This document shows positions 14,684-32,979 of a DNA stretch of 38,291 nucleotides, one piece after another. The stretch is from Pseudomonadota bacterium. GTDB taxonomy: Bacteria; Pseudomonadota; Alphaproteobacteria; Rhizobiales; Xanthobacteraceae. The stretch covers positions 1-38,291 of the forward strand of contig JAFEFK010000895.1 of the NCBI GenBank assembly GCA_018240625.1, in the 5' to 3' direction. The stretch's first letter is position 1, and each line of letters begins with the position of its first letter. Position numbers and translations under genes: made by a program. Below the pieces are notes generated by a model. It was not told the origin of the DNA. It did not search any database and saw only the letters and a program-made list of their open reading frames with translations.

Positions 14684-14708
14684 GCCGTGACGAGATAACG
14701 ATCTTTCA

Positions 14709-15905
14709 ATGGAGAGCGCCATGTTGAAGCAAACCATCAAAATGCCGAACCCCCGCAGAAAATTGTCACTCGGATTCGCCAGCGCCCTGATGCTCGGGGT
14801 CGCGACCATGATGCCCGCGCATGCCGACATCAAGATCGGTTTCCAGGTGCCGCTGACGGGCCCTGCCGCCACCGACGGCAAGTCGGCCCAGATCGCGGGA
14901 GTCATGGCGGTCGAGGACATCAATGCTGCGGGCGGTGTGCTCGGCCAAAAAATCGAGCTCGTGACTTACGACGATCAGGCTAAGTCCGATCAGGCGATCT
15001 TCACCGCCAACAAGCTGATCGGCGAGGACGGCGTCAAGCTGGTGGTCAACGGCAGCTATTCAGCGTCGGGCCGTGCCGCCGCGCCGGTGTTTCAGAAGGC
15101 GGGTGTCGTCATGATCTCGGCTTATGGCGTGCATCCGGACATCACCAAGGCCGGCGATTACATGTTCCGTCTTGTTCATCTCGGTCCGCAGCAGGGCGCG
15201 GCGACCGCGCTCTATATTGGCAAGAATCTCGGATTGAAGAAGATATCCACCATCACGATGGACAACGACTACGGCCAGGCGACGATGAACGGCTTCATCG
15301 AGGCTTCCGGCAAATACGGCATCACCGTTGTCAACAAGTACAGCTATTCGCTCAAGGACCGTCAGTTCGGCTCGATCGTGGCGAGCGTGAAGCGCGATAA
15401 TCCCGACGCGGTATACGCGACCGGTTACTTCTTCACCGGCGGTCCGCTGGTCTCCCAGTTGCGCGCCGCTGGGATCACCGTGCCGATCATCGGTTCGCAA
15501 GCCTTCGATTCCGAGAAGTTCATCGAGATCGCCGGGCCGGCTGCCGAAGGCGTTTACATCATGGACAGCTTCGACCGCGATCGGAAGGACGAAACCCTCC
15601 AGCACTTCTTCACGGAATTCAAGAAGCGAGCCGGCTATGCGCCCGAAGGCGTCGCGGCGATCACCTATTCTGCGGTCAAGCTGATGGCGGACGGAATCAA
15701 GCGCGCCAACAGCACGGATCCGGCCAAGGTGCGCGATGCGCTGGCGGCAACCAAGAATTTCCCGATGCTCGAAGGGACGCTCAACGGCTTCAACAGCCTG
15801 CATGAGATGATCATGCCGATCAGCGTCAACGTCATCAAGGACGGCAAGTTCAAGCCTGCCGGCGTCCTCACCGATCTCTCCGCGTTCGCGCCGCCCGAGA
15901 AATAA
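14709..15905 (+). CDS. Branched-chain-amino-acid-type (Liv) ABC transporter substrate-binding protein
   Basis: Signal peptide ending PAHA-D; IKIGFQVPLTGPAA, EDINAAGGVLGQKIELV.YDD, NDYG. Start could be 14721 or 14742. Confidence 0.9.
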   Translation: MESAMLKQTIKMPNPRRKLSLGFASALMLGVATMMPAHADIKIGFQVPLTGPAATDGKSAQIAGVMAVEDINAAGGVLGQKIELVTYDDQAKSDQAIFTANKLIGEDGVKLVVNGSYSASGRAAAPVFQKAGVVMISAYGVHPDITKAGDYMFRLVHLGPQQGAATALYIGKNLGLKKISTITMDNDYGQATMNGFIEASGKYGITVVNKYSYSLKDRQFGSIVASVKRDNPDAVYATGYFFTGGPLVSQLRAAGITVPIIGSQAFDSEKFIEIAGPAAEGVYIMDSFDRDRKDETLQHFFTEFKKRAGYAPEGVAAITYSAVKLMADGIKRANSTDPAKVRDALAATKNFPMLEGTLNGFNSLHEMIMPISVNVIKDGKFKPAGVLTDLSAFAPPEK

Positions 15906-15969
15906 GCCATGAGGGAAACGGAGAATGGGCGGCGGCAATGGCGCGTCGCCCACGGCAGAGGATGACGCG

Positions 15970-16839
15970 GTGTACTACTTCGATCTGGCCGTAACCGGTA
16001 TCAGCTTCGGCTGCATGTATGCCATGATGTCGGTGGGCCTGACCCTTGTGTATGGCCTGCTGCGCATTTTGCACGTGGCTCATGCCGCAGTATTCACGCT
16101 CGGCGCCTATGTCACGGTTCTCGTGGCGAACGCCACGGGCAGCATATTGCTAGGCTTTCTGGCGGCGATGATCGTCACACCGCTGTTTGGAATGGCGATC
16201 TATCGCGTCATGTACGAGCCTCTGCTGAAATACCGCCCGGATGTGCCGATGATCGCCTCGATTGGGCTGCTGATTTTCATGCAGGACGCGTTCCGTATCG
16301 TCTTCGGCGAGCAAGGCATCACCTTTCACAGAAACGCCTTCGCGTTTACGACTTTCAACGTCTTCGGCGTCACCGTCAGCGCGGTGCAGATCGCGACGAT
16401 CATCGCCGCGGCGGTCGTCTTTACCGCGCTGCATCTATTCACAACGCGAACCAGAATCGGAATCGGCTGGCGGGCGACGGTGTCGAAGCCGCAAATTGCC
16501 GCGAGCTTCGGCATCGATCCGATCAAGGTTCGTTATCTGAACTTTGCCGTCGGATCGGTGCTCGCCGCCATCGCGGGCGGTCTGGTCGCGGAAATGAACA
16601 ATCTGGTCGATCCCGGCATCGGTTTCGTCGTCAGCTATAAGGCATTGGCCATCATCGTTCTCGGCGGCCTCGGTAGCGTGCGCGGCACCCTGATCGCAAG
16701 CCTTGTGCTCGGTCTTGTCGAGGCCTACGGCACGATCTTCATCGGCGCGTGGCTTGATCGCGACGCCATCGCCTTCCTCGCACTCATCGTCTTGCTCATG
16801 ATCCGCCCGCAAGGCTTCACCGGAGCGCGGACGGCATGA
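15970..16839 (+). CDS. Liv-type ABC permease (LivH-like)
   Basis: GCMYAMMSVGLTLVYG..ILHVAH, TRIGIGWRA, IIVLGGLGS; GTG 15970 preceded by GAGGA. Confidence 0.9.
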   Translation: MYYFDLAVTGISFGCMYAMMSVGLTLVYGLLRILHVAHAAVFTLGAYVTVLVANATGSILLGFLAAMIVTPLFGMAIYRVMYEPLLKYRPDVPMIASIGLLIFMQDAFRIVFGEQGITFHRNAFAFTTFNVFGVTVSAVQIATIIAAAVVFTALHLFTTRTRIGIGWRATVSKPQIAASFGIDPIKVRYLNFAVGSVLAAIAGGLVAEMNNLVDPGIGFVVSYKALAIIVLGGLGSVRGTLIASLVLGLVEAYGTIFIGAWLDRDAIAFLALIVLLMIRPQGFTGARTA

Positions 16840-17684
16840 GCGCCTACGAAATTAGCATCATTTCCATCATCGGCATCAACGTGATCCTGGCGGTGAGCCT
16901 CAACATGATCAGCGGATTCTGCGGGCAGATCAGCATCGGGCACGGCGCCTTCTTCGGCACTGGCGCCTATGCCGCAGCTTTGACGATGGTTGGAACCGGA
17001 AGCGTTCCGCTGGCGATCCTTGCTGCGCTCGTCACCGGAAGTTTGCTCGGGCTTGCGGTCGGGTTCGCCTCGCTGCGTGTCCGAACGGACTTTCTGGCGG
17101 TTACCACGATCGGCGTGAACTTCCTGTTTGTCGGATTCGTCCGCAAGCAGGCCTGGCTCGGCGGCGAGATGGGGATCAGCGGCATTCCGGCGACCGGTTT
17201 CGGTCCTGTCGGCAACATGACGATGATCCTGCTGTTCGCGGCAGCGACCATCGCGCTCAGTCTTTACATCAGCCGGTCGTGGATGGGCTTTGCTTTCCGC
17301 GCCGTTGGAGAGGACGAGGGCACGGCCGCGACGCTCGGTATCAATGCCGGCGCCTACAAGCTTGCCGCTTTCGGCATCGGCACCGCGCTCGCCGGACTGG
17401 CCGGTTGCCTCTACACGTTCTTCACGCAGTTCATCGCCGCCGATGCTTTCGATTTCATCTTCTCGGTGATGCTGATGGCGATGGTCGTGATCGGTGGCAT
17501 CGGATCGACCTGGGGTGTGGCGGTCGCAGCCGTCGGGTTGACGCTGCTGCCTGAGGCGATCCGCTTCGTGAACGATTACCGGCTGCTCGTGTTCGGAGGG
17601 CTGCTGGTGCTGGTGATCCGCCTGGCGCCGAGCGGCCTTGCGGGCCTCGTTCAAAAAGCCTTTCTGGCGGTGAGGCGGTCATGA
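16836..17684 (+). CDS. Liv-type ABC permease (LivM-like)
   Basis: GFCGQISIGHGAFFG.GAY, LGGEMGISGIP, RAVGEDE..AATLGIN, MVVIGGIGS; ATGA overlap with the previous gene. Confidence 0.9.
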   Translation: MSAYEISIISIIGINVILAVSLNMISGFCGQISIGHGAFFGTGAYAAALTMVGTGSVPLAILAALVTGSLLGLAVGFASLRVRTDFLAVTTIGVNFLFVGFVRKQAWLGGEMGISGIPATGFGPVGNMTMILLFAAATIALSLYISRSWMGFAFRAVGEDEGTAATLGINAGAYKLAAFGIGTALAGLAGCLYTFFTQFIAADAFDFIFSVMLMAMVVIGGIGSTWGVAVAAVGLTLLPEAIRFVNDYRLLVFGGLLVLVIRLAPSGLAGLVQKAFLAVRRS

Positions 17685-18434
17685 GCGCAGCGCTTCAGCT
17701 CGATGATGTGGCGATCCGGTTCGGCGGTGTTCAGGCGGTCGGCGGCGTCTCCTTCAGTGTCGAAGAAGGCGATTTCGTCGGCCTGATCGGGCCGAATGGT
17801 GCCGGCAAGACGACGCTGATCAAGATCATTGCGGGTCTGCTGCGTCCGGACAAGGGCCGCGTGCAACTCTCGGGCGTTGAAGTGACGGCGGATGGAACCG
17901 CTGCGCGCGTCCGTCAGGGGCTTGCCTTGACCCACCAGATCGTCCGGCCGTTCCGCGAAATGACCGTGCTCGACAATGTGACGCTCGGTGCGGGCTATCG
18001 CCACACGTCATCGCCGTTCCGGGCCTTGATGCATCTCGACAGGCGCCGTGAATCCGAGCGCGCCGCCGAGATCATCGCGCAGGTCGGTCTGGCCGGAACG
18101 GAAAGAAAGCTCGCTGGTTCCTTACCGCTCGGCCAGATGAAGCGTCTGGAGGTTGCGCGCGCGCTTGCGGTCGAGCCGCGGGTGATTCTGCTCGACGAGC
18201 CGCTGGCAGGACTGAACCATACCGAGGCATCGAAGCAGGTCGAGGCGATCGCCGCGGTTCATGCACGCGGCATCACCGTGGTACTGGTCGAGCATAATCT
18301 CGAAGAGGTCATGCGAATCTGCCGGCGCCTGATCGTGCTGAACAATGGACTGGTAATTGGAGACGGCGAGCCGCGGGAAGTAATGGCCGATCCTGTCGTC
18401 CACGAGGCCTATATCGGCGGAGGGATGGCGAGCC

Positions 18435-18448
<14 letters not shown>
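17681..18448 (+). CDS. Liv-type ABC ATPase (LivG-like)
   Basis: Walker A GPNGAGKTT, LPLGQMKRLE, LLDEPLAG, VEH, EAYIG. Confidence 0.92.
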
Positions 18449-19145
<697 letters not shown>

Positions 19146-19186
19146 GCATTTTTGAAAATCCGCGTTGCGGGTGAAAGGGACTGACG

Positions 19187-20254
19187 ATGGCGCGAATGCT
19201 GACGGCGGACGATGTGGAAGCGGGACTGGTCGGCGGATTGTTTCTGTCGGCTGGCGGCAGCGGCCGGAACGCGGTCGTCAAGAATCGCGGTCTCGGCCAG
19301 ATGGCGCTGGACTACGGCGGCGTGCGCCTGGTTGCGCTCGACGAACTGAATCCCGACGATACGGTCATCACCGCGACGGCGGTTGGCGCGCCCGGGTTTG
19401 CCAATTGGGCGATCCGGCCGCGCGATTCCATCAACGCAGCGCGGCGCCTGATCGAAAAACTGCCGAAGCCGCCGGTCGGCGTGATCTGCGGACATGTGCC
19501 CGGCTTCAATGCATGGCTGGTGGCGTCTGCGCTCGGGCTTGACTACATCGATGCCGCGTCGAACGGACGCGGGCATCCGACCGTCAAGATGGGCGGCATG
19601 GGGCTGGCGTCGCGGCTCGACTTGTCCATCACGCAGATCGGTTGCAGCGGCAGCAATGTCGAGCAGAATGAATTTTCCGTCATGGCTGAAGGCGACATCG
19701 TCCGCACCTCCAACGCGATGCGTCAGGCGGCGGTGATCAACGGCGGATTGATCTATGCGGCACGCGGTCCGTTGAGCGCCGGTTTCATCAAGGAGAATGG
19801 CGCGGCGGGCGCCATCACCTTCCAGCTCGATCTCGGCCGCGCGATGCTCGCGGCCAACGGACCGGACCGCGTTCGGGCGACGGTTGAGTTCCTGGGCGGC
19901 GAGTTGCTGGTCGAAGGGGAGGTCACGGCCAACAGCGTGGCCTACGGCGGCGGCTTCGATCTCGGCCAGATGACGGTGCGCGGCACGACCGGCGAGGCGA
20001 TCCTCGGGGTCTATAACGAGTTCATGACCGCAGACTTCGCGGGCAAGCGGGTCGCGACGTTCCCCGACATGATCGGGACGCTCGATCCGCAGACCGGCGA
20101 GGTCGTGTCGATTTCGGAATCGAAGCCCGGCAGCCGCGTCGCCGTCATCATCGCGCATCGGTCGAAATTTCCCGTGGGCAAGGGCGCGCTGGATCCGGCG
20201 GTCTTCCCCGAGGTCGAGAAGGCCATGGGCGTCGATATGCGATCTTATCTTTGA
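19187..20254 (+). CDS. DUF917-family protein (thiohydantoin desulfurase-like)
   Basis: N-terminal LTADDVEAGLVGGLFLSAGGSG, TAVGAPG, DAASNGRGHPT, GGFDLG, YNEFM, ATFPDMI match the DUF917 pattern as I recall it; 355 aa; same operon as a urocanase paralog. Confidence 0.78.
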   Translation: MARMLTADDVEAGLVGGLFLSAGGSGRNAVVKNRGLGQMALDYGGVRLVALDELNPDDTVITATAVGAPGFANWAIRPRDSINAARRLIEKLPKPPVGVICGHVPGFNAWLVASALGLDYIDAASNGRGHPTVKMGGMGLASRLDLSITQIGCSGSNVEQNEFSVMAEGDIVRTSNAMRQAAVINGGLIYAARGPLSAGFIKENGAAGAITFQLDLGRAMLAANGPDRVRATVEFLGGELLVEGEVTANSVAYGGGFDLGQMTVRGTTGEAILGVYNEFMTADFAGKRVATFPDMIGTLDPQTGEVVSISESKPGSRVAVIIAHRSKFPVGKGALDPAVFPEVEKAMGVDMRSYL

Positions 20255-20268
20255 GAGGGCGAACCGCC

Positions 20269-20874
20269 ATGCTGCGTCTCTATGATAGCCGGTTGTCCGG
20301 CAATGCCTGGAAAGTGCGCATTCTGCTGACGCAACTCGGCATTCCCTTCGAGCGCGTCACTCTCGATCTGGCCAAGGGCGCAACCGGCGATCCTGCGTTT
20401 CGTGCCAAGAGTCGTTTTGCGCGGGTGCCGGTGCTCGAACTCGAGGATGGGCGCACCATCGTGGAATCGGCGGCGATCATGCTCTACGTCGCCGAGGGCT
20501 CGCCATTGTTGCCCGACGACCGCTACTTGCGCGCCGAGGTCACGAGCTGGCTGACATTCGAGCAGGCGGACCTGCTGCGCGCGCTGGCGCTGCCGCGGTT
20601 CTACACCATGCGCGGCATGGCCGATCAGATGAAGAGCCGGATCGCCGATTTCCAGGAGGGCGCTTACGCCGCGCTCGCCAAGCTCGAGGCCTGGCTTTCC
20701 ACTCACGACTGGCTTGTCGATGACCGTTACACCATCGCCGACATCGGTGTGTTCGGCTATGTCGCGATGGCGGGCGAGGGCGGCTACGATATGGATAAAT
20801 TTCCGGCGATCCGCGCCTGGCTCGCGCGGGTCAAGGCCCGGCCCGGCTGGGTTCCGCTGGTTGAGGAGGCCTGA
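20269..20874 (+). CDS. Glutathione S-transferase family protein
   Basis: LYDSRLSGNAWKVRILL, RVPVLEL.DG..IVESAAIMLY, YTIADI, FPAIRAWLARV; ATG 20269 after GAGGG. Confidence 0.9.
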   Translation: MLRLYDSRLSGNAWKVRILLTQLGIPFERVTLDLAKGATGDPAFRAKSRFARVPVLELEDGRTIVESAAIMLYVAEGSPLLPDDRYLRAEVTSWLTFEQADLLRALALPRFYTMRGMADQMKSRIADFQEGAYAALAKLEAWLSTHDWLVDDRYTIADIGVFGYVAMAGEGGYDMDKFPAIRAWLARVKARPGWVPLVEEA

Positions 20875-20876
20875 CA

Positions 20877-22535
20877 ATGACAATTCCCGTACGCCGCGGC
20901 AAAGAGGTGAAGGCCGAGCGCGGCAACGTCCTGCGCTGCAAGGGCTGGCGGCAGGAGGCGATCCTGCGCTTGCTGGAGAACAACCTCGAAAATGGCGAGG
21001 ATCCCGAAAATCTCGTCATTTACATGTCGATTGCGCGGGCGGCGCGCGATTGGAAAAGCTTCGATCGCATCGTCGCGACGCTGTCGACGATGCGTGAGGA
21101 TCAGACGTTTGTGATGCAGTCCGGTAAACCGGTTGGCGTCTTTCCGGGCCAATCCACGACGCCGCTCGTCATCATGGCCAACGGCAATCTCGTCGGCGAG
21201 TGGAGCGGCGAGGATAGCCGCCGCAAGCTCGACGACATGGGACTAACCGTTTATCCTGGCATGACGGCGGCGGCCTGGCAATACATCGGCAGTCAGGGAA
21301 TCCTGCAGGGAACGTTCGAAACCTTCATGGCGATCGCGCGCCAGCATTTTGGCGGCACGCTCGCAGGACGATTGCTGCTGACGTCCGGTTGTGGCGGCAT
21401 GAGCGGCGCGCAGCCGCTTGCCGGAAAGCTCGCAGGTGCTTCGACCCTGGTGATCGAGGTCGACCGGGCTCGCATCGACCGGCGCATCGCGTCCGGCTAT
21501 TGCGATGCCGTCACGGACAACCTCGACGAGGCCATCGCGCAATGGACAGCCGCGCGTGACCAGCGACGCCCGCTGGCGCTGGCGTTGTGTGCGAACGCCG
21601 CTGTGGTGCTGCCCGAACTGGCGAGGCGCGGGATCCAGCCCGATATCGTCACCGACCAAACCTTCCCCGATCCTTTGAAAGGATATGTGCCGGCCGAATT
21701 GTCGCTGGAAGAAGCACGCGCGATGCGGTCCAGCGATCCCGGGAAGCTGATGGAGCTGGCGCGGCGATCGGTTGCGACGCATGTCCGCGCGATGCTGGGA
21801 TTCATGGATCGCGGCGCGATCGTGTTCGAATACGGTAACAGCCTGCGTGCCGAAGCGAAGGCCGCCGGTGTCGACGATGCGTTCCGCATGCGTTCCTTCG
21901 TCGATCTCTATATCCGTCCGCTGTTCTGCGAGGGCATAGGTCCGTTCCGCTGGATCGCAGTCTCCGGCGATCCGAAGGACATCTACACCATCGACGACAT
22001 GATCCTCGACACCTTTTCGTCCAACCATCCGATTGCGTCATGGATCGAAAAGGCGCGCGAACATGTCAAGTTCACAGGACTTCCGGCGCGGATCGGCTGG
22101 CTCGGCTATGGCGAGCGCAGCCGTCTGGCGTTGCTGGTCAACGACGCGGTGGCGAGCGGCAGGACTTCCGCGCCTATCGCGTTTACCCGCGATCATCTGG
22201 ACTCCGGCTCCGCCGCGCTTCCGCATCGAGAGACCGAGAACATGAAGGACGGCTCGGATGCCATCGCGGACTGGCCGATCCTGAATGCGCTGCTCAACTG
22301 CTCGTCCGGCGCCGATCTCGTCGCGGTTCATGGTCTTGGCGGGCGTGGCGTCAGCGCAGGGGTCACCATCGTCGCGGACGGCAATCCGGCGACTGCCGAA
22401 CGGCTCAAGCGGGTTCTGGATGGCGATCCGGGGATTGGTGTGCTGCGACATGCAGACGCCGGTTACGATATCGCGATCGAGCAAGCCAAACGTACCGGTT
22501 TGTCCGCGACGCTCCCGCTGGGATTGCCCGGCTGA
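20877..22535 (+). CDS. Urocanate hydratase paralog (divergent; candidate thiourocanate/substituted-urocanate hydratase)
   Basis: Colinear with HutU (AARDWKSF, QSGKPVG, YIGSQGILQGT, GGMSGAQP, TDQT, YGN, IRPLFC.GIGPFRW, RDHLDSG, RETE.MKDGSDA.ADWP.LNALLN, RHADAGY) but with substitutions at conserved active-site motifs. Confidence 0.88.
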   Translation: MTIPVRRGKEVKAERGNVLRCKGWRQEAILRLLENNLENGEDPENLVIYMSIARAARDWKSFDRIVATLSTMREDQTFVMQSGKPVGVFPGQSTTPLVIMANGNLVGEWSGEDSRRKLDDMGLTVYPGMTAAAWQYIGSQGILQGTFETFMAIARQHFGGTLAGRLLLTSGCGGMSGAQPLAGKLAGASTLVIEVDRARIDRRIASGYCDAVTDNLDEAIAQWTAARDQRRPLALALCANAAVVLPELARRGIQPDIVTDQTFPDPLKGYVPAELSLEEARAMRSSDPGKLMELARRSVATHVRAMLGFMDRGAIVFEYGNSLRAEAKAAGVDDAFRMRSFVDLYIRPLFCEGIGPFRWIAVSGDPKDIYTIDDMILDTFSSNHPIASWIEKAREHVKFTGLPARIGWLGYGERSRLALLVNDAVASGRTSAPIAFTRDHLDSGSAALPHRETENMKDGSDAIADWPILNALLNCSSGADLVAVHGLGGRGVSAGVTIVADGNPATAERLKRVLDGDPGIGVLRHADAGYDIAIEQAKRTGLSATLPLGLPG

Positions 22536-22569
22536 TGCTGGATTGTTGACTTCCTCAGCCCCTGCAATA

Positions 22570-22581
22570 ATGTATAGACAT
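22570..22581. promoter_or_regulatory. HutC-type operator overlapping a likely sigma70 promoter of the OCD-like gene
   Basis: ATGTATAGACAT near-palindrome; its core TGTATAGACA is the exact reverse complement of the core at hutI/hutF. TTGACT at 22546-22551 and TAATGT at 22568-22573 are plausible -35/-10 elements. Confidence 0.75.
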
Positions 22582-22631
22582 ATTGAATTGCAGTGCCGAC
22601 GACCGACCGCGGCCGCCGGCGAGGAGGTTCC

Positions 22632-23633
22632 TTGCCGCCGATCTACATCACCTATCTGAACCGTCTCGATATCGAAGAACTGAAGATCACCGACGACGAA
22701 ATCCTGTCGGCGATCGAGGCGAGCCTTGCCAGCCAGGGCCGGGGCGAGACGGTGATCGAACCGCGCATGCATCTCGAACCGGGTGTCGCCAACGGCCATT
22801 TCAACGTGCTGCGCGGCGCGATCAAGGAACCGATCGACAGCGCGGGCGTGAAGATCGTCGGTGACTTCGTCGATAACTACAAGCTCGGTTTTCCGTCCGA
22901 ACTCGCGATCCTCGCCCTGTTCGATCCGCGAACCGGAGCGCCCAAAGCGATCCTTGATGCGAGCGGCATCACCGACATGCGCACCGGCGCAGTGACCGCC
23001 ATCGGCGCCAAGCATCTGGCGCGGAAGAATTCCAAAATACTCGGTCATGTTGGCGCGCGAGGGACGGCCTACTGGAACGTGCGGCTGCTCAATCACCTGT
23101 TCGACTTCGACGAAATCCGCGTGCATTCGCGTCGCGAGGAAAGCCGTAACAGCTTTGCGGAGCGATTGAGCCGCGATCTCGGCAAGAAAGTCATTGCAAC
23201 GAGCGATTGGCAGAGTTGCATCGAAGGCGCCGATATCGTTGTGGAAGCATCGCGGCTCGACAAGCCGACGCCGATGTTGAAAACGTCCTGGATTAAGAAA
23301 GGGGCCTTCGTCGTTCCCTATGGCACCATGAGCGCGATCGAGCTCTCGCTCACCGACATCATGACGAAACTGGTCGTTGACGACTGGGGTCAGTGCAAGG
23401 GCGGCAAGTTCGGCAGCCTGCGCGCGCACGTCGAGGCAGGCAAGCTGTCGGAAAAGACCTTGCACGCCGAACTCGGGCAGATCGTAGCGGGTTTGAAGCC
23501 GGGGCGGGAAAGCGACGCCGAGACCAATCTGTTCTGGCACCGCGGCCTGTCCCTGTCGGATATCGCGCTCGGACATGCCATGCTGGAGAAATCGAAACGG
23601 CTCGGTCTCGGACAGCGGCTGCGCTTCGCATGA
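22632..23633 (+). CDS. Ornithine cyclodeaminase/mu-crystallin family protein
   Basis: GVKIVGDF.DN, ALFDP.TG.P.AILDA..ITDMRTGA, Rossmann GHVGARGTA, GADIVV, ELGQIVAG.KPGRE, GLSLSD; TTG 22632 after GAGGAGG. Confidence 0.88.
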   Translation: MPPIYITYLNRLDIEELKITDDEILSAIEASLASQGRGETVIEPRMHLEPGVANGHFNVLRGAIKEPIDSAGVKIVGDFVDNYKLGFPSELAILALFDPRTGAPKAILDASGITDMRTGAVTAIGAKHLARKNSKILGHVGARGTAYWNVRLLNHLFDFDEIRVHSRREESRNSFAERLSRDLGKKVIATSDWQSCIEGADIVVEASRLDKPTPMLKTSWIKKGAFVVPYGTMSAIELSLTDIMTKLVVDDWGQCKGGKFGSLRAHVEAGKLSEKTLHAELGQIVAGLKPGRESDAETNLFWHRGLSLSDIALGHAMLEKSKRLGLGQRLRFA

Positions 23634-23641
23634 GTTGAACC

Positions 23642-24454
23642 ATGCCTTACCTCGCAAACGCGCGGATGTATTCGGTCAATCCCGGCGCGGCGTTTGCGTG
23701 GAGGGACTTGTTTGCGTGGCTGGCGGAGGCGAGCGGTGTCGACCTGAATATAATCGATCACGCTTTTCCTGCGCCGCTGGCGGCGTTGTGGTCGCGCCCC
23801 GATCTCGGCTGCGCGTTCATGTGCGGCTTTCCCTACAAGCTGTCGGATCATCCGCCGAAGCCGGTGGCGGTTCCGATTCCGTCGCAGGGGCCGGTCATCG
23901 GGCGGGCGCTTTATGCGACACGGCTCATCGTGAAGGCGAATTCTCGCTTTCAGTCGCTGGAGGAGACGTTCGCCGGCCGGCTCGGCTACACGGTCTCGGA
24001 CTCGCATTCGGGCTACAATGCGTTGCGTCACCATCTGTTGGGCTATCGGCGGAAAGCGGGCGGCAACCTCTACCGTGAAAGCATCGGGCCGCTCACGACG
24101 CCGCGGCGGGTGATCGAGGCGGTTCTTGCCGGCGAGATCGATATCGGGCCGCTCGATAGCTATGCGCTCGATTTGATGCGGCGGCACGATCAAGCTCTCG
24201 CGTCACAGATAAGGGTCGTCGCGACGACGGATGTCGCGCCCATTCCGTTCCTGATCGCGGGGAGGGACTGCCCCGATGATGTGGTGCTGGCCTTGCAGGC
24301 AGCGTTGTTGAAATTCGGTGACGTTGCGGCGTGCGCCGACCTCAGGGATCGGCTTTGCCTGAAAGGCTTCGCTCCGGTCGCAGTCGGGGATTACGATTTG
24401 ATGCTGCGCTGGGATGCCGAGGCGCGCGCTGCGGGCTATGGGTGTCCGGGCTGA
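23642..24454 (+). CDS. PhnD/SsuA-like binding-protein-fold protein lacking a signal peptide
   Basis: FMCGFPY, Y.TRLIV.A.S.FQSLE, DSHSGYNALR, V.AG.IDIGPLDSY, IRVVATT..APIPFL are typical of PhnD-like proteins; the N-terminus MPYLANARMY has no hydrophobic signal. Confidence 0.7.
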   Translation: MPYLANARMYSVNPGAAFAWRDLFAWLAEASGVDLNIIDHAFPAPLAALWSRPDLGCAFMCGFPYKLSDHPPKPVAVPIPSQGPVIGRALYATRLIVKANSRFQSLEETFAGRLGYTVSDSHSGYNALRHHLLGYRRKAGGNLYRESIGPLTTPRRVIEAVLAGEIDIGPLDSYALDLMRRHDQALASQIRVVATTDVAPIPFLIAGRDCPDDVVLALQAALLKFGDVAACADLRDRLCLKGFAPVAVGDYDLMLRWDAEARAAGYGCPG

Positions 24455-24498: not shown

Positions 24499-25074
24499 TT
24501 ATTGGGCCGTGAGCCAGATCAGATGGCAATTGCTCGTGGCTGGCACGATCCGAAAATCGGTCGTTGTTGCGCGGTCGATAAGAGCCGCGTCGCCGTGTTC
24601 GAGTGTTGCTGTGTTCTCGCCGGCGATGATTTCGGTCGTGCCGTTGAGCGATAGAACGACGGCGATCTGGTTATCGCCGAAATCGCAGGACATCGACGTC
24701 GAGACCCGCACCAGATGGTGCCGGAAGCAGCCATGCCGCGTCATGATGTTCAGGTCAGTGATTTCGCCGGCGGTCAGGCGTGCCGACGTCGGCGTATCGC
24801 CGGCGAAGCTGATGGGGGCCGTTCCATCGGCCAGCGTCACCGGCGCGCGGTTGCCGATGGTCAGTATCAGGCCATTCCCCTTAACGACCGCGAGCGTGCG
24901 GTCGATGCCGGGGAAATTGGAGAACGGTCCATCGGAGGCGACCACCGCCATGCTGATGCGCCAGTCGAAATCATCCAGAGATGCATCGGCCGGCGCGACC
25001 GCGATTTCCGTGGTCGAGCCGCCGCCGTTCTTCCACGGCGTCATCTTGCAGTCGCTGGCGCGAATGATCCGCAC
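24499..25074 (-). CDS. hutD: HutD/Ves family protein
   Basis: PWKNGGGSTTEIA, FDWRISMA.V..DGPFS.FPGIDR, DLNIMTR; GTG 25074 just after the hutU stop. Confidence 0.92.
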   Translation of the reverse strand: MRIIRASDCKMTPWKNGGGSTTEIAVAPADASLDDFDWRISMAVVASDGPFSNFPGIDRTLAVVKGNGLILTIGNRAPVTLADGTAPISFAGDTPTSARLTAGEITDLNIMTRHGCFRHHLVRVSTSMSCDFGDNQIAVVLSLNGTTEIIAGENTATLEHGDAALIDRATTTDFRIVPATSNCHLIWLTAQ

Positions 25075-25081
25075 GGCAATC

Positions 25082-26746
25082 TTATGCCAGACCGGGCAGG
25101 TCGAGATGGTGCTGCCGCGCGCAGTCGATTGCGATGTCGTAACCGGCGTCGGCATGACGCATCACGCCGCTCGCCGGATCGTTCCACAGGACGCGCTCGA
25201 GACGGGCCGCCGCCTCGGGCGTGCCGTCGCAAACGATCACCATGCCGGCGTGTTGCGAAAAGCCGATGCCGACGCCGCCGCCATGATGCAGCGAGACCCA
25301 GGTGGCGCCGCTCGCACAGTTCAGTAGCGCATTGAGCAGCGGCCAATCAGAGACGGCATCGGAGCCGTCCTTCATCGATTCCGTCTCGCGGTTTGGCGAG
25401 GCGACCGAGCCGGAATCGAGATGGTCGCGGCCGATTACGACAGGCGCCTTCAATTCGCCGTTCGCCACCATCTCGTTGAAGGCAAGTCCGAGCCGATGGC
25501 GATCGCCGAGGCCGACCCAGCAGATGCGCGCCGGCAGGCCCTGGAATGCGATGCGTTCGCGCGCCATGTCGAGCCAGTGATGCAGCGGCGCATTGTCGGG
25601 CAGCAGTTCCTTGACCTTGGCGTCGGTGCGATAGATATCCTCGGGATCGCCGGACAGCGCCGCCCAGCGGAACGGACCGATGCCGCGGCAGAACAGCGGC
25701 CGGATATAGGCCGGCACAAAGCCCGGGAAATCGAAGGCGTCCTTGACGCCTTCCTCGAACGCCATCTGGCGGATATTGTTGCCGTAATCGACCACGGGAA
25801 TGCCCATGCGGTGAAAGTCCAGCATGGCGCGGACGTGTTCGGCCATCGACTTCCGCGCCGCCGCTGCGACGCCTTTCTGGTCGGTCTCGCGCCGGGCTTC
25901 CCATTCGCCGGGCGTCCAGCCTTTCGGCAGATAGCCGTTGACGGGATCGTGCGCCGACGTCTGGTCGGTGACGGCGTCGGGCCGCACGCCGCGCCGTACC
26001 AGTTCAGGAAATATCTCGGCGGCATTCCCGAGCAATCCGACTGAAACCGGCTTCCGGTCGCGGCACGCCTGTTCAATGATTGCCAGCGCCTCATCGAGGT
26101 TCTTGGCCTGACGGTCGAGGTAGCGGGTGCGCAGCCGCATCTCGATTCGAGACGGCTGGCATTCGACGGCGAGGCACGATGCGCCGGCCATCACGGCGGC
26201 GAGCGGCTGCGCCCCGCCCATGCCGCCAAGTCCCGCCGTCAAAATCCATTTGCCCGAGAGATCGCCACCGAAATGCTGCCGGCCCATCTCGACGAAGGTT
26301 TCATAAGTGCCTTGAATAATGCCCTGGCTGCCGATGTAGATCCAGGAACCGGCCGTCATCTGGCCGTACATCATGAGACCTTTGCGGTCGAGCAAATTGA
26401 AATGCTCCCAAGTGCCCCAGTGTGGCACCAGGTTCGAGTTGGCGATCAGCACGCGAGGCGCATCGGCATGGGTGCGAAAGACGCCGACCGGCTTGCCCGA
26501 CTGCACGAGGAGCGTCCGGTCACCTTCCAGCCGTTTCAGTGTCGCGACGATCCGGTCAAAGCTTTCCCAGTCGCGCGCGGCGCGACCGATGCCGCCATAG
26601 ACCACGAGCTCGCTCGGCTTTTCGGCGACGTCAGGATCGAGATTGTTCATCAGCATGCGCATCGGCGCTTCGGTGAGCCAGGATTTTGCGGTCAACGTAT
26701 TGCCGTGTGCCGCACGGATCACGCGGGCATTGTCGATGCGAGTCAT
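25082..26746 (-). CDS. hutU: Urocanate hydratase (canonical)
   Basis: MTRIDNAR start at 26746; [54 protein letters not shown]. Confidence 0.97.
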
Positions 26747-28008
26747 GTCATAATTCCTTGGCGGCAATGATCTCGGTTGCGGGGCACGGGAGGACGGGAG
26801 ATACCTCGCCACACCCGGGCGTAAAGCGGATTGAACCCAATTCGGTAGACCAGTTCGGCAGGCCGCTCGATATTCCAGATTGCGAGATCGCAGGATTTGC
26901 CCGCATCCAGGCTTCCGACCTGATCGAACAGGCCGAGCGCGCGCGCGGCCTCGCGCGTTACCGCGGCAAGGCATTCGTCGACGGTGAGACGGAACAAGGT
27001 CGCGCCCATGTTCATCGTGAGCAGCAACGAGGTCAGCGGCGATGTGCCCGGATTGCTGTCGGTCGCAAGCGCGATAGCCACCCCGTGACGGCGCATCGCC
27101 TCGATCGGCGGCATCTGGTGCTCGCGGATGAAATAGAAGGCGCCCGGCAAAACAACCGCGACGGTGCCGGCGCGGGCCATGGCTGCGATGCCGTCGTCAT
27201 CGGTATATTCGAGATGGTCGGCCGATAGCGCGCCGAAACGGGCCGCGAGCGCCGCGCCATGCAGGTTCGACAACTGGTCGGCATGCAGGCGAACCGGAAG
27301 GCCGAGCGATTTGGCCTTTGCGAAGACCTGTGCGGTCTGCTCCACCGAAAACGCAATGCCTTCGCAGAAGGCGTCGACGGCATCGGCAAGCTGGTCGGCG
27401 GCGATCGCGGGCAGCATCGTATCGCAAACCGTATCGATATAGCCGGATTTGTTGCCGGCCATCTCCGGAGGGAGAGCGTGGGCGCCGAGAAAAGTCGTGC
27501 GAACGGAAATGTCGCGCTGGTCTGGGAGGCCACGCGCGGCCCGCAACTGCCGGCGTTCGGTCTCGAGTTCGAGACCATAGCCGGACTTGATCTCAATGGT
27601 GGTCACGCCTTCGGCGATCAGCGCATCGAGCCGGGGCAGCGCCGCCGACATCAGTTCCTCGGTGCTCGCCTGGCGTGTCGCCTTCACCGTCGAGACGATA
27701 CCGCCGCCTGCGCGCGCGATTTCCTCGTAGCTTGCACCGGCCAGACGCTGCTCGAATTCCTGCGCGCGGTTGCCTCCGTAAACCAGATGCGTGTGGCAGT
27801 CGATCAGACCGGGCGTGATCCAGCGGCCGTCGCAATCGGTTCGCTGCTTTGCATCGATCTCCGATGGCGCATCGGCGGCAGGGCCGGCATACACGATACG
27901 GCCGTCACGGGCGGCGATCAGGCCGTCATCGATCAGACCGAGACCCTGGCGCGAGGGCGAAAGCGTAGCAAGACGACACCGGTGCCAGATATGGTCGACG
28001 AGGGTCAT
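26743..28008 (-). CDS. hutI: Imidazolonepropionase
   Basis: [60 protein letters not shown]. Confidence 0.97.
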
Positions 28009-28056: not shown

Positions 28057-28068
28057 TTGTCTATACAT
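28057..28068. promoter_or_regulatory. HutC operator between divergent hutI and hutF
   Basis: TTGTCTATACAT matches the known HutC TGTA-N2-TACA-type palindrome and sits in the expected position. Confidence 0.85.
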
Positions 28069-28120: not shown

Positions 28121-29479
28121 GTGGCCGGACTGTTCTTCGATGAAGCGCTGCTGCCGCAAGGCTGGGCGCGCAATGTCAGGCTGGCGATCGATGGCGGCCG
28201 ATTTGCGAGCGTCGAGACGAACGTTTCGCCGGCTCCCGGTGATGAGCGTCATCGGATCGGGCTTCCCGGAATGCCCAATCTGCACAGCCATGCGTTCCAG
28301 CGCGGCATGGCGGGGCTCGCGGAAATCAGGGGCGGCGCATCGGACAGTTTCTGGACCTGGCGCGAGGTGATGTACCGCTTCGTCGGGCGCATGACCGCCG
28401 ATGATATCGAGGCGGTGGCGGCGCAGGCCTATGTCGAGATGCTGGAAGCCGGGTTCACTCGCGTCGGCGAATTCCATTACATCCATCACGATGCGTCGGG
28501 CGCGCGTTATGACAACATCGGCGAACTGGCCGAGCGCGTCGCGTCATCGGCGCAAACCACCGGCATCGGACTCACCCTGCTGCCGGTGTTCTATGCCCAT
28601 GCGGGATTCGGCGGCCGCGCGTCCGAGCAAAACCAGCGCCGTTTCATCAACAGCATCGACGGATTTTCGAAACTGATGGCAGCTTGCAGGCGCGCCATCG
28701 CCGGCCAGCAGGGCGCAATTCTCGGGTTTGCTCCGCATTCCTTGCGCGCAGTGACGCCGGACGAACTTGCGGCGCTTCTGCAGTTGGACGACGAATGCCC
28801 CGTTCACATGCATATCGCCGAGCAGACCCGCGAGGTCGATGACTGCATGCAATGGAGCGGTCAACGGCCGTTGCAATGGCTCTTCAACCATGTGGAGATC
28901 GATCGCCGCTGGTGTCTCATTCATGCCACGCACGCAACGCCCGATGAAGTCGCACGTCTGGCGCGAAGCGGCGCCGTCGCCGGACTGTGCCCGGTGACCG
29001 AGGCCAACCTGGGCGACGGCACGTTCAGCGCCGCGGAATTCTGTGATCATGGCGGCGCATTCGGCGTCGGTTCGGATTCCAACGTACTGATCGGTGTCAG
29101 CGACGAACTCCGTCAGCTGGAATATTCGCAGCGGCTGGCGCATCGGGCGCGCAATGTCCTCGCGGGATCGGCGGCCTCCACCGGCCGAACATTGTTCGAA
29201 GGTGCGGTGACCGGCGGATCGCAGGCGCTTGGCGTCGCTTCCCCGGGTCTTGTCGAAGGCGGGTTTGCGGATATCGTCAGCCTCGATCCCGAACACGTTG
29301 CGCTTGCCGGCCGGTCTGGCGATGCGATACTCGATAGCTGGATCTTTGCGACAAGCCGCTCGCCGGTGGATTGCGTCTGGGCACGCGGCCGCAATGTCGT
29401 GCGCGGCGGCCGTCATCGTGCGAGTGACGCGATCGCACGGCGCTTTCGGCAAGTACTACAGGGGCTGCTCGGCGCATGA
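28121..29479 (+). CDS. hutF: Formiminoglutamate deiminase
   Basis: PNLHSHAFQR, SFWTWREVMY, GEFHY.HH, APHSLRAV, HIAEQ..EV, HATH, TEANLGDG, GSDSN. Confidence 0.96.
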   Translation: MAGLFFDEALLPQGWARNVRLAIDGGRFASVETNVSPAPGDERHRIGLPGMPNLHSHAFQRGMAGLAEIRGGASDSFWTWREVMYRFVGRMTADDIEAVAAQAYVEMLEAGFTRVGEFHYIHHDASGARYDNIGELAERVASSAQTTGIGLTLLPVFYAHAGFGGRASEQNQRRFINSIDGFSKLMAACRRAIAGQQGAILGFAPHSLRAVTPDELAALLQLDDECPVHMHIAEQTREVDDCMQWSGQRPLQWLFNHVEIDRRWCLIHATHATPDEVARLARSGAVAGLCPVTEANLGDGTFSAAEFCDHGGAFGVGSDSNVLIGVSDELRQLEYSQRLAHRARNVLAGSAASTGRTLFEGAVTGGSQALGVASPGLVEGGFADIVSLDPEHVALAGRSGDAILDSWIFATSRSPVDCVWARGRNVVRGGRHRASDAIARRFRQVLQGLLGA

Positions 29480-30210
29480 GACTGGAAGCGAAACGGGGCG
29501 TGCCGGGCGCGGCGCTTTATCAGCGGATTCGCAACGACCTCGAGACCAAGATCATGTCTGGTGCGTGGCCGCCCGGGCATCGGGTGCCGTTCGAGCACGA
29601 ATTGATGGAGACTTATTCCTGTTCCCGGATGACCGTGAACAAGGTGTTGTCGACGCTCGCCGACGCTGGTCTGGTGGTGCGCCGGCGCAGGGCGGGCAGC
29701 TTTGTGTCGCGGCCGCGGGTGCAATCCGCCATTCTGCAGATTCCCGACCTGAAGGCGGAGATTGAAAAGCGCGGCGAACGCTACGGCTATCGGTTGCTCG
29801 ATTTGCAAAAGCGTAACGCCACGGCACAGGACCGCATCCGGCTCGGTATCGGCGGCCGTGCAACCGTGCTGGCGTTGCGCTGCCGTCATGAAGCGGAAGA
29901 GCAGCCGTTCGCGATCGAGGACCGGCTGATCAGCGTTCAAGCGGTGCCCGATGTGCTCAAGCAGGATTTTTCGATCACACCGCCGAACACCTGGCTTGTC
30001 GGTCACGTCCCCTGGACCGAGGCCGAGCACCGCATCACCGCCTGCAATGCGGACAACGACGTCGCCGCAGAGCTGGGTATTGAACCGGGCGCGGCGTGCC
30101 TTGTGATCGAACGGCAGACGTGGCGCAACGGTGAGCCGATCACCGCGGTGCGGCTCATCCATCCCGGCCGGCTCTACGATCTGATCGCCCGGTTCACGCC
30201 GACCGCTTGA
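29476..30210 (+). CDS. hutC: Histidine utilization repressor (GntR/UTRA)
   Basis: SGAWPPGHRVPFEHEL..YSCSRMTVNK, PWTEAEH.I.A, CLVIERQTW; follows hutF with an ATGA overlap. Confidence 0.93.
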   Translation: MRLEAKRGVPGAALYQRIRNDLETKIMSGAWPPGHRVPFEHELMETYSCSRMTVNKVLSTLADAGLVVRRRRAGSFVSRPRVQSAILQIPDLKAEIEKRGERYGYRLLDLQKRNATAQDRIRLGIGGRATVLALRCRHEAEEQPFAIEDRLISVQAVPDVLKQDFSITPPNTWLVGHVPWTEAEHRITACNADNDVAAELGIEPGAACLVIERQTWRNGEPITAVRLIHPGRLYDLIARFTPTA

Positions 30211-30237: not shown

Positions 30238-31275
30238 CTACTTTTTGCCGGCCTTCTCGACGAAGCTGTTGGTCCACACGTCGTTCTGTGACGTTGCCGC
30301 GTCGAATTCCTTGTCGTATTTGGTGCCGACCTCCTTGGAGAACTGCAGTTGATTGCGGACCGCCTCGACGTCTAGCGCGCCGCCGCCGGCGATCCCGCTG
30401 TTGAGCGCCTTGACAGCTGAAACAATGGCGGCGGGATCGGCCTTCGCGAAGAACTGCTTCTGGATTTTCATCGCGTTCGGCTCGGGGTCTTTGACAAGGG
30501 TTGCGCTTGCCGCCTGCATTGCCCCCACGGCTTTGACGATCAAACCCGAGGTCTTGTCGTCGATCGGCTTCTTGGCGACCATCACGAGGTAGGGCTGGTT
30601 GGCCAACAACGGAAATTCGTCGCCAAGTGAAACCAGGATCACCCCATCGCCGGCTTTGGTTGCTATGTAACCCGCCGGGGGCGAGAGCATGAAGGCGTCG
30701 ATGCGTTTTTGTTCGAGCGCCGCCTGCAGCGCGGGCGGGCTGCCGACCTGCGCAATCTTGATATCCGCCTTGGGATCGAGGCCGCCCTTTTCCGCGAGCC
30801 AGCGCGTCGCTGTTTCCTGGGTGCCGCCGATGGCGCCGACGCCGATCGTGGCGCCTTTCAGGGCCGCAATGCGTTTTTCCAGCGGATCGGCCGGCTTGAC
30901 GCCGGCTTTTTCGAGGAATGATTTCGAGACCACGAGTTCCAGCGTCACCTTCGACATCAGGTTGTAGACGATCTCGAACGGCTGACCCTTGCCGATGGCG
31001 CGTAACGCCGATTCCGTTCCGACGGCGGCGAGATCTACGTCGCCGGCGTCGAGAGCGGCAAGCGCTGCCGGATCACCGCCGGGCTGGACGATGGTGGCCT
31101 GAATGCCTGCCGCCGGAAACGTATCGAGCGCGCGGGCCGCCCAGATCGGCAGGAAACTCAACGCGGGGAAGCCTTGAGCGATGCGCACGGTCTGCTGCGC
31201 ATGCGCCAGTGTCGGAACCAGAAGCAATGTCGCGGCAAACACCGCCGCACGAGTCAGACCGGAGATGGAACGCAT
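30238..31275 (-). CDS. NitT/TauT (SsuA/TauA-like) ABC substrate-binding protein
   Basis: Signal peptide ending AHA-Q; FLPIWAA, ALDAGDVD, LKGATIGV, GGLDPKADIKI, RIDAFM, WTNSFV. Confidence 0.85.
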   Translation of the reverse strand: MRSISGLTRAAVFAATLLLVPTLAHAQQTVRIAQGFPALSFLPIWAARALDTFPAAGIQATIVQPGGDPAALAALDAGDVDLAAVGTESALRAIGKGQPFEIVYNLMSKVTLELVVSKSFLEKAGVKPADPLEKRIAALKGATIGVGAIGGTQETATRWLAEKGGLDPKADIKIAQVGSPPALQAALEQKRIDAFMLSPPAGYIATKAGDGVILVSLGDEFPLLANQPYLVMVAKKPIDDKTSGLIVKAVGAMQAASATLVKDPEPNAMKIQKQFFAKADPAAIVSAVKALNSGIAGGGALDVEAVRNQLQFSKEVGTKYDKEFDAATSQNDVWTNSFVEKAGKK

Positions 31276-31302
31276 GCTGTCCTCCTGTTTCGGATCGTCG
31301 AT

Positions 31303-32145
31303 CTAGATGTCGTTCGGAGCGGCTACGGTCAGCGTTTTCCAGCGGAGCAATCGCCGCTCCAGCCGTCCGGCCAGGAAATTGGCGATGGCTACAAAGACGA
31401 GCAGAATAACGATGCCCGCGAACACGCCGGCGGGGTCGTAGGTCGCAGATGCTTCACGAATGAAGAGACCGAGCCCCTGGATCGAGGACGTGAACTCGCC
31501 GACGATCACGCCGATCACGCTATAGGGCACGGCCATCCGCATGCCGAGCAGGACGTAAGGCGCAGCCGCCGGGAAATAGACGTGATAGGTGAGTTGGCGC
31601 TGGTTGGCGCCCATCACCAGGGTGAGGTTCGCCAATTCGCGATCAACGCTGCGAACGCCGGTATAGACGTTATAAAACACGAGGAAGAAAACCATGATCG
31701 CGGCGAGCGCGATCTTCGATCCGATGCCGATGCCGAACCAGATGATGAACAGCGGCGCCAGCGCGATCTTGGGAATGCCGTAGAACGCCATGACATAGGG
31801 TTCGAAGATACTGGCGATCCGCGGCGAGCGGCCGAGCATATAGCCGCCGATAATTCCGCCGGCGACGCCGATGACATAACCCAGCACCAGTTCCTGACCC
31901 GTCGTCCAGAGATGCGGATAGATCTCGCCGGACGCGAACAGCTCATAAAGCCGCGCCGCCACCGCGGTCGGCTTGCTGACATAAGTCTCCATGATCCAGC
32001 GTCCCGACGCCCATTGCCAGAATCCGAGAAGCGCGAGCCCCGGAAGCAACCTCATCAGGCCCCTGGCCGCCTTGCTCGCAAGCGACCGTCGTGCCGAGGG
32101 CTTTCCGGCAAGGGGTTGATCGGCTGTGGTGGCAAGGTCGTTCAT
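31303..32145 (-). CDS. NitT/TauT ABC permease
   Basis: IPKIALAPLFIIWFGIG..SK, EAA-like loop MGANQRQ, VIVGEF, GLG; ATG 32145. Confidence 0.9.
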   Translation of the reverse strand: MNDLATTADQPLAGKPSARRSLASKAARGLMRLLPGLALLGFWQWASGRWIMETYVSKPTAVAARLYELFASGEIYPHLWTTGQELVLGYVIGVAGGIIGGYMLGRSPRIASIFEPYVMAFYGIPKIALAPLFIIWFGIGIGSKIALAAIMVFFLVFYNVYTGVRSVDRELANLTLVMGANQRQLTYHVYFPAAAPYVLLGMRMAVPYSVIGVIVGEFTSSIQGLGLFIREASATYDPAGVFAGIVILLVFVAIANFLAGRLERRLLRWKTLTVAAPNDI

Positions 32146-32161
32146 GAGCCGACGATCGCTT

Positions 32162-32956
32162 TCAGTGGGGTTGCTGGCGGATGCCGATCTGGGATCGGAA
32201 CACGGTCCAGACCGCATCATAGGCGTCCTCGAAGCCGGGGTTCTTGAACGGCTCGAAGACGTTCCGCGGGCGTGGCAGATTAATGGCAATGTTGGCCAGC
32301 AGCTTGGACGGGCGCTGGCTCATGATTGCAACATTGTCGGCGAGCAGCACGGCTTCCGTAATGTCGTGGGTAACAAACAGCACCGTCGCGCTCGCGTCGC
32401 GCGACAACATCTGCAAGTCGTTCTGCATCACCATCCGGGTCTGCGCATCGAGCGCGCCGAAAGGCTCGTCCATCAAGATCACGTCGGGGCGGTATACCAG
32501 GGTTCGGGCGATGGAGCCTCGCTTCTGCATGCCGCCCGATAGCTGGCTGGGAAAATAATGATCGAATCCCGACAGGCCGACGGCATCGAGCGCCGCAGCA
32601 ACGCGCTCGCGGCGCTCGTCCGCACCAACGCCGCGCAGCAGCAGCGGAAGCTCGACGTTTTGAGCCAGCGTCTTCCAGGGAAACAACTGGGCCTGCTGCG
32701 GCACGAAACCGACTTCACGATTAATGGTGGCAATCGCGCGGCCGCGGTGATGCACCGTGCCGCGGGTCGGCATCAGAAGTCCGGCGGCCATCTGCAGCAG
32801 CGTGCTCTTGCCGCAGCCGCTGGGGCCGATCACCGCGACGAAGCGCCCATGGCCGACGTCCAGATCGATGCCGTCGATGACCCGGATTCCGACGTCGCTT
32901 CCCGGCGCAGGAAACTCCTGCCGGATGCCGCTGAACGAGAGCACTGCGTCATTCAT
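32162..32956 (-). CDS. NitT/TauT ABC ATPase
   Basis: GPSGCGKSTLL, FPSQLSGGMQKR, LMDEPFGALDAQTR, FVTHDI.EAV; ATG 32956 after AGGTGG. Confidence 0.92.
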   Translation of the reverse strand: MNDAVLSFSGIRQEFPAPGSDVGIRVIDGIDLDVGHGRFVAVIGPSGCGKSTLLQMAAGLLMPTRGTVHHRGRAIATINREVGFVPQQAQLFPWKTLAQNVELPLLLRGVGADERRERVAAALDAVGLSGFDHYFPSQLSGGMQKRGSIARTLVYRPDVILMDEPFGALDAQTRMVMQNDLQMLSRDASATVLFVTHDITEAVLLADNVAIMSQRPSKLLANIAINLPRPRNVFEPFKNPGFEDAYDAVWTVFRSQIGIRQQPH

Positions 32957-32979
32957 ATCGCGTCCCACCTGACCGGGAG

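Follow-up and report, generated by a model that had tools for sequence, protein, structure and literature searches.

A lyase-less, HutC-boxed gene unit beside a hut cluster in a Xanthobacteraceae genome encodes a predicted reductive desulfonase of sulfo-urocanate

We analysed a 38,291-nucleotide stretch of a Xanthobacteraceae genome (GenBank assembly GCA_018240625.1, contig JAFEFK010000895.1, positions 1 to 38,291, forward strand), hereafter the window, and focused on a unit of two genes within it. The first gene (22632..23633, + strand) encodes a 333-residue oxidoreductase of the ornithine cyclodeaminase (OCD)/mu-crystallin family (PF02423, E 2e-54). The second (23642..24454, +) starts 8 bp after it and encodes a signal-less, 270-residue protein of the AioX/PhnD fold (PF12974, E 2e-19), here called the PhnD-like protein. 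Judging from sequence and gene neighbourhoods, the OCD protein is probably a reductive desulfonase that depends on NADPH. It would turn 2-sulfo-urocanate into urocanate and sulfite, feeding the adjacent HutU-HutI-HutF pathway from behind a conserved HutC-type box. The source genome assembly measures 4.58 Mb and is 89.2% complete.

The OCD unit is likely under HutC control. A predicted HutC operator, TGTATAGACA (22571..22580, +), overlaps the -10 region of the likely OCD promoter, and an identical 10-mer is predicted as an operator between hutI and hutF (28058..28067, -), in agreement with the initial annotation, which had recognized a common core in the two boxes. Genome-wide, TGTATAGACA occurs three times against 0.73 expected under an order-3 Markov model, and two of the three copies are inside the window. 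The HutC consensus is TGTA-N2-TACA and the effector is urocanate (PMC12977541); TGTATAGACA matches this consensus with one mismatch. In 16 of the 20 closest loci, the 200 bp preceding OCD hold a box with one mismatch or none, and 14 of these 16 also have a TTGAC, always 25 bp ahead of the box. As a control, 240 of 10,000 random 200-nt segments from the same loci contained a box (2.4%). The four boxless loci included two with a decayed box and two with an extra gene in front. The TTGAC conserved at fixed spacing is part of a candidate promoter (22546..22573, +) consisting of TTGACT (-35, 22546), a 16-bp spacer and TAATGT (-10, 22568). This is likely the OCD promoter, with its -10 region covered by the box; a strict sigma-70 scan called no sites, this candidate included. 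The mismatch count, the recurrence among close loci and the 10-mer shared with hutI/hutF give the box the position and sequence kinship of a HutC-regulon operator. Two more HutC-like sites were seen elsewhere in the source genome (G000:C843:12978-12998 and C378:2127).

The unit is followed by hutI, hutU and hutD (24499..28008, -; Pfam and NCBIfam assignments), with no hutH between hutI and hutU, and by hutF and hutC (28121..30210, +; NF006683 and TIGR02018 above cut-off). Next comes an ATP-binding cassette (ABC) importer of the NMT1/SsuA type (30238..32992, -), with a weak match to TIGR01728 below the cut-off. Two palindromic HutC-type boxes, TGTCTAGACA, were located before this importer by motif search, at 32982 and 33001 (32982..33010, unstranded). 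This importer may be the one that takes up urocanate or sulfo-urocanate.

The OCD protein belongs to the PF02423 superfamily by its profile score, which is above the cut-off, by its fold and by its catalytic Lys/Arg/Asp positions. Its probable start is TTG 22632, which is preceded by GAGGAGG at 22621 and is where relatives also begin; a longer version starting at GTG 22593 was rejected. The protein fell below every NCBIfam cut-off for the family (OCD, AlaDH, SbnB, EutC, LhpI and BhcD), with a best score of 188 bits against 409. Its predicted structure (predicted local distance difference test, pLDDT, 94.9) most resembles those solved for imine reductases and dehydrogenases, with which the protein shares 25-30% identity (TM 0.87-0.90). 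R45, R61, K74, R117 and D310 align with K41, R52, K65, R108 and D297 of the A. fulgidus alanine dehydrogenase (1omo), and the 1omo counterparts of K74, R117 and D310 are presumably catalytic. The fold and the catalytic Lys/Arg/Asp are common to the imine reductases of the family (T. litoralis P2C reductase 6t3e, 1omo, SbnB and BhcD), but the window OCD differs from these in its GxRG loop, its WHRG motif, its extra invariant Arg and His residues and its gene context. The Rossmann loop, GARGTA, had been called atypical in the initial annotation, and R143 of this loop proved invariant in 105 of 105 homologues, as did H303, R304, H47, H56 and N58. The predicted pocket, very basic, would fit a dianion carrying a carboxylate and a sulfonate. 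The second Rossmann strand is followed by HSRR, without an acidic residue. Basic, non-acidic residues at this place go with a preference for NADP(H), and HSRR suggests that the cofactor is NADPH.

A scan of GTDB genomes yielded at least 573 confirmed OCD relatives among 600 stretches. Counts over 80 loci refer to the best 80 (75-98% identity), among which related loci are not independent. The commonest neighbour, within 8 kb of OCD in 42 of the 80 loci, was a PF00221 protein without the Ala-Ser-Gly (ASG) that forms the 4-methylideneimidazole-5-one (MIO) group in enzymes of this family. These partner lyases scored under the hutH cut-off, and their best solved relative is the T. denticola ergothionase (E 5e-76, versus 2e-64 for HutH). 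The second link is to hut, with hutU beside OCD in 22 loci; hutU and a MIO-less lyase were both present in only one. The co-occurrence with hut genes that the initial annotation suggested checking thus holds for hutU, but the MIO-less lyase is the commoner partner. Other neighbours among the 80 loci were the PhnD-like gene (34), a betaine-type OpuAC importer (22), NtaA/DmoA-type flavin monooxygenases (21), an NMT1 importer (21) and an ASG-type hutH (4). A YeiH/putative sulfate or sulfite exporter lies near OCD in four unrelated loci (L008, L081, L083 and L177 in our numbering of loci). Annotated plasmids carry the module in other arrangements: the order is exporter...hutC-lyase-OpuAC-OCD-PhnD-like-ABC on R. 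johnstonii pRL12 and YeiH-lyase-TTT-OCD-PhnD-like in Polaromonas JS666, and comparable gene sets were found in Burkholderia and Martelella. hutC paralogues or boxes accompany the lyase in the operons of Burkholderia, Martelella and R. johnstonii pRL12. On three plasmid records (L081, L178 and L180), genes named 'hutH, histidine ammonia-lyase' lack ASG and are MIO-less lyases. In six OCD operons that are distant from any lyase (L021, L023, L039, L085, L128 and L129), a Dpp importer is found together with a reductase of the Ldh2 family and an enzyme of the mandelate-racemase family, possibly for a betaine racemase step. Of 300 genomes sampled evenly across the order, 23 held OCD. The top 13 matches (at least 630 bits) to a partner-lyase profile in these 300 genomes all came from genomes with OCD, and 12 lay no more than 8 kb away from it; this profile was built from OCD-adjacent lyases, so the result is partly circular and shows tight pairing, not an independent test.

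The residues of the partner lyases point to an anionic sulfur group on their substrate. We read 63 MIO-less frames over 110 loci, 60 of which were readable at the key positions. A Lys aligned with ergothionase Lys384 in all 60 (K383 in the PDB chain, assuming a one-residue offset), and in 58 an Arg took the place of the 'SH'-motif His that HutH and ergothionase have. Lys384 of ergothionase binds the thiolate, with Asn in its place in a hercynine-specific lyase (bioRxiv 10.1101/2025.08.13.670108). Because a Lys/Arg pair near the ring would suit an anionic sulfur group, the lyase appears to sense sulfur and would act first, before OCD.

In most carriers, the MIO-less lyase would thus remove trimethylamine from ergothioneine sulfonate to yield 2-sulfo-urocanate, an activity suggested by the pairing and the residues. 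OCD would then transfer a hydride to C2 of the imidazole, the amidine-like C=N carbon, from which sulfite would depart, in line with the imine-reductase chemistry of the family. HutU, HutI and HutF would take urocanate to glutamate, and urocanate would, judging from the box, relieve repression by HutC. In 2022, Yan, Huang and Zhang reportedly described in ACS Catal a catabolic pathway for ergothioneine sulfonate in A. radiobacter that includes a reductive desulfonation. The desulfonase is said to belong to the OCD/mu-crystallin family, to follow an ergothionase-type lyase and to supply urocanate for hut. The HutC-boxed OCD unit seems, with fair probability, to work like this desulfonation step, a predicted link by function. 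Rhizobium plasmids combine a lyase, an OCD about 69-70% identical to that of the window, the PhnD-like gene, a betaine importer and hutC. Compared with the A. radiobacter pathway as reported, the window unit has neither lyase nor betaine importer, but is placed under apparent direct HutC control in a hut block with an NMT1-type importer. In the literature searched, we found no description of this OCD enzyme, of a lyase-less, HutC-boxed form or of the PhnD-like accessory protein.

No lyase was found in the source genome or its closest relatives, and for this reason they would import the substrate ready-made, probably via the boxed NMT1/SsuA-type importer. A search of the source genome with PF00221, the family of hutH, gave no match (89.2% complete), which extends to the whole assembly the earlier remark that the hut cluster lacks hutH. 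A MIO-less trimethylamine lyase was likewise not found at this completeness of 89%, leaving the reported pathway apparently incomplete there. We also searched 36 genomes that were picked for having no MIO-less lyase beside OCD and whose completeness is not given. PF00221 was without a match in 14 and had one or more in 22; MIO-less lyases were recognized by motif in three, and a fourth was suspected by score. Among the 20 closest genomes, 10 had no PF00221 match, 10 had an ASG-type HutH only (two in pieces) and none had a MIO-less lyase. Because a MIO-less lyase was found in none of the 20 and PF00221 was not found in 10, hercynine would be a dead end for these genomes and urocanate usable. 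Since OCD persists without any trimethylamine lyase, it must accept a compound already built on the urocanate skeleton, barring an overlooked lyase in every one of these assemblies. The source genome also has an EgtD-type methyltransferase gene (G000:C896:4271-5161), and may make ergothioneine or hercynine itself while being without a lyase to degrade it.

Several observations weigh against a desulfonase role. A lyase could have been missed, the source genome being 89% complete and many of the lyase-less relatives being drafts or metagenome-assembled genomes. The Arg of the partner lyases could equally signal a substrate that is carboxylated or not an imidazole, since it replaces an imidazole-binding His. 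The link to the exporter is sparse (four loci), and the sole YeiH gene of the source genome belongs to a cluster unrelated to this one. OCDs that are more divergent (62-69% identity) frequently have mixed neighbours and no nearby lyase. Likewise, six of ten sampled divergent or lyase-distant loci (the sample included L123, L130, L131 and L133-L136) had no nearby lyase, and several had unrelated neighbours. Databases label the subfamily only 'ornithine cyclodeaminase family' or 'alanine dehydrogenase', and none of the OCD cluster members listed is a functionally named entry.

The best surviving alternative, which we consider unlikely, keeps the reductive chemistry and changes the leaving group: OCD would reduce thiourocanate, its sulfinate, or an S-methyl sulfoxide or sulfone, releasing sulfide, sulfoxylate or methanesulfinate. 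An S-methyl-thiourocanate operon adjoins OCD in the window (13235..22535, +; NF058532 and NF058531 above cut-off). It encodes UbiD, a Liv-type ABC transporter, an S-methyl-thiohydantoin desulfurase, a glutathione S-transferase (GST) and an S-methyl-thiourocanate hydratase, has no lyase and ends 96 bp upstream of OCD. Sulfones could be products of the paired flavin monooxygenases, present in 21 of 80 loci, and Lys384 also serves plain ergothioneine (bioRxiv 10.1101/2025.08.13.670108). However, the operon adjoins OCD in only six of 80 loci and owns a hydratase and a desulfurase, and in the genome of L017 it continues directly into ubiX and a TPR-like gene with no OCD block. The extra Arg of the lyase, moreover, would suit a sulfonate better than a neutral thioether. 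We rejected OCD as a member of this operon given its own promoter and box, the rarity of the adjacency and the operon's being intact without OCD in L182. The block of OCD, hut and importer genes (22546-33010) looks inserted between the S-methyl hydratase gene and ubiX, which are adjacent in L182, ubiX and the TPR-like gene being found beyond the block in the window, and we treat the adjacency as secondary for this reason. Farther upstream lie ertD and ertE (8491..11209, +; NF058538 and NF058540 above cut-off), which complete the breakdown of ergothioneine to glutamate. The window thus holds two routes for urocanate-type compounds, each without its entry lyase. The ErtD/ErtE thiourocanate and the S-methyl-thiourocanate hydratase routes (NF058529-NF058540) share the window and the C2-sulfur urocanates with the OCD route and are also lyase-less here. 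They hydrate the ring first and take the sulfur off later, whereas the OCD route would remove sulfur reductively and then use the classic Hut pathway.

It is improbable that the two steps run in reverse, with OCD desulfonating intact ergothioneine sulfonate to hercynine and the lyase acting second. Betaine importers are present in the operons of 22 of 80 loci, and the reported outline of the pathway of Yan et al. does not fix which step comes first. Partner lyases nonetheless keep the Lys384 that is missing from the hercynine-specific lyase, and no lyase of any kind was found for hercynine in 10 of the 20 close genomes.

We hold it for just as improbable that the pair bypasses HutH, as the initial annotation had proposed, by deaminating or eliminating from D-histidine, imidazole-lactate or imidazole-pyruvate, or a cyclic or opine-like histidine. 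The HutC box is in keeping with such a bypass, as is the presence of amino-acid dehydrogenases and lyases of the SbnB type within the OCD family. A hutH-family gene was found neither here nor in 10 of the 20 close genomes, while nine of ten sampled same-family genomes lacking OCD had a HutH-level match. This scarcity of hutH favours the notion in the initial annotation that such bacteria enter Hut below histidine, but the other 10 close genomes keep an ASG-bearing hutH. OCD, the PhnD-like gene and an ASG-bearing hutH even share one cluster in two distant cases, Paracoccus saliphilus and a Comamonadaceae plasmid, so that OCD and hutH are not mutually exclusive. Because of this coexistence, a simple replacement of HutH is ruled out; the bypass also leaves the pairing with a betaine lyase unexplained. 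From the proposed alternative entry into Hut, HutC control and a supply of urocanate remain likely, but not the substitution for HutH. The lyase pairing points to a sulfur-bearing urocanate, and none of the substrates listed in the initial annotation is such a compound.

A non-sulfur anionic derivative of betaine or urocanate as substrate, such as a ring-carboxylated or ring-oxidised histidine in which OCD reduces C=N or C=C, is very improbable. The change of His to Arg in the partner lyase is compatible with it, as is UbiD, whose gene directly precedes OCD in L041 and L042 and occurs in the operon neighbouring OCD in the window. However, the sulfur-linked neighbours (exporter, NtaA/DmoA monooxygenases and SsuA-like importer) would be left unaccounted for, and we know of no abundant natural substrate of this kind. 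Scarcely credible, despite its fold and database names, is a plain ornithine/lysine cyclodeaminase or pyrroline-2-carboxylate reductase with a chance location beside hut, given at most 30% identity to solved members, scores below every NCBIfam cut-off, the conserved box and the context of histidine derivatives.

The PhnD-like protein may be an optional, cytoplasmic accessory to the predicted desulfonase. It is signal-less, as first annotated: no leader peptide was found, its peak 11-residue hydropathy is 1.3, whereas two ordinary binding proteins of the window reach 2.0 and 2.6, and its homologues begin at the same ARMY motif. It has a type II binding-protein fold, closest to that of the arsenite-binding AioX (Z 26.5, root-mean-square deviation 3.0 A, 253 aligned residues, 24% identity). 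The score for TIGR03431 was 21 bits against a cut-off of 261, and the export signal and cognate transporter or kinase of periplasmic PhnD/AioX proteins were not found. The fold and a CGxP Cys motif are shared with the arsenite/arsenate binders AioX/ArrX and with PtxB/PhnD; unlike these, the protein lacks a signal peptide, a sensor kinase and a dedicated ABC permease and has an invariant N-terminal Arg-x-Tyr. R8, Y10, C61, S121, S123 and D172 are invariant both in a close set and in a distant alpha/beta-proteobacterial set. The gene was found in nine of the 23 OCD genomes. It also occurs without OCD in six genomes of genus g57, placed directly behind the gene for a nitrile hydratase alpha subunit (two loci, L141 and L144) or behind an Ldh2-racemase pair. 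An obligate two-subunit enzyme of OCD and the PhnD-like protein was rejected, the gene not being found in 14 of the 23 OCD genomes and occurring without OCD in six. A complex prediction for the two proteins scored 0.00 and was counted neither way. Some cluster representatives appear to fuse OCD with the lyase or with the PhnD-like protein; we set these aside, as they resemble gene calls that are fragmentary or frameshifted.

The PhnD-like protein might handle a sulfinate-level compound or bind freed sulfite at Cys61. Its gene and the flavin monooxygenases, found in 34 and 21 loci respectively, occur together in one of 80, a figure confounded by lineage. Because it almost never accompanies the monooxygenase pair, the PhnD-like protein could provide an alternative route for a lower oxidation state. 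A cytoplasmic sulfite binder is plausible since sulfite is a pyramidal oxyanion, as are arsenite and phosphite. A bolder option is a DszB-like desulfinase. Desulfinases of the DszB type have a binding-protein fold with a catalytic Cys and Arg, and the invariant Cys61 and Arg8 of the PhnD-like protein would be candidates for such roles. DszB was not among the 50 matches listed by a wide fold search or among the listed Foldseek matches, which excludes nothing.

Other genes of the window touch on the same compounds. A TPR-like protein of 569 residues (33775-35484, +) carries the His-rich motifs HLHIH and HMNHMPGH and is possibly a metalloenzyme. Its homologues stand beside OCD and the PhnD-like gene in L177 and L131 (45%), and in L182 a homologue (71%) closes the S-methyl-thiourocanate operon; look-alikes in the atlas include Ascomycota clusters, and it has no real PDB relative by sequence. 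UbiD (13235-14683, +) heads the S-methyl-thiourocanate operon, to which UbiX (33123-33749, +) belongs in L182. A prenylated flavin mononucleotide (prFMN) enzyme in thiourocanate catabolism might serve as a decarboxylase, a cis-trans isomerase or a desulfinase. The GST (20251-20874, +) lies between the desulfurase and hydratase genes, is conserved in six loci and L182, and is possibly, at a guess, a cis-trans isomerase or a handler of methanethiol. A double LysR regulator of 616 residues with two helix-turn-helix domains (11234-13084, -) is divergent from the S-methyl operon, and similar TTTCGTTTTTTCCTAT motifs were seen near 13140 and near 8420, before ertD.

What is new is that the unit occurs behind a HutC box without a lyase, a version that implies cross-feeding, and that it includes an AioX-like Cys protein of the cytoplasm, as yet uncharacterised. 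A broader and doubtful picture is that soil carriers of the Xanthobacteraceae/Bradyrhizobium type are lyase-less scavengers of urocanate, S-methyl-thiourocanate and sulfo- or sulfino-urocanate from other microbes, in which the PhnD-like protein would be a new Cys/Arg desulfinase with an arsenite-sensor fold for the sulfinate and OCD would serve the sulfonate. For the family, the predicted reaction offers a testable substrate for a tightly conserved OCD subfamily, misnamed ornithine cyclodeaminase or alanine dehydrogenase in databases, and many 'hutH' annotations beside OCD are MIO-less lyases. Its AioX-like partner in the cytoplasm offers a clean starting point in the search for a new enzyme or sulfite-handling protein. 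The lyase-less version makes the order of pathway steps testable from genetics alone. Ergothioneine is a fungal antioxidant, and this version suggests that soil bacteria cross-feed on its oxidised products, a poorly mapped part of the sulfur cycle.

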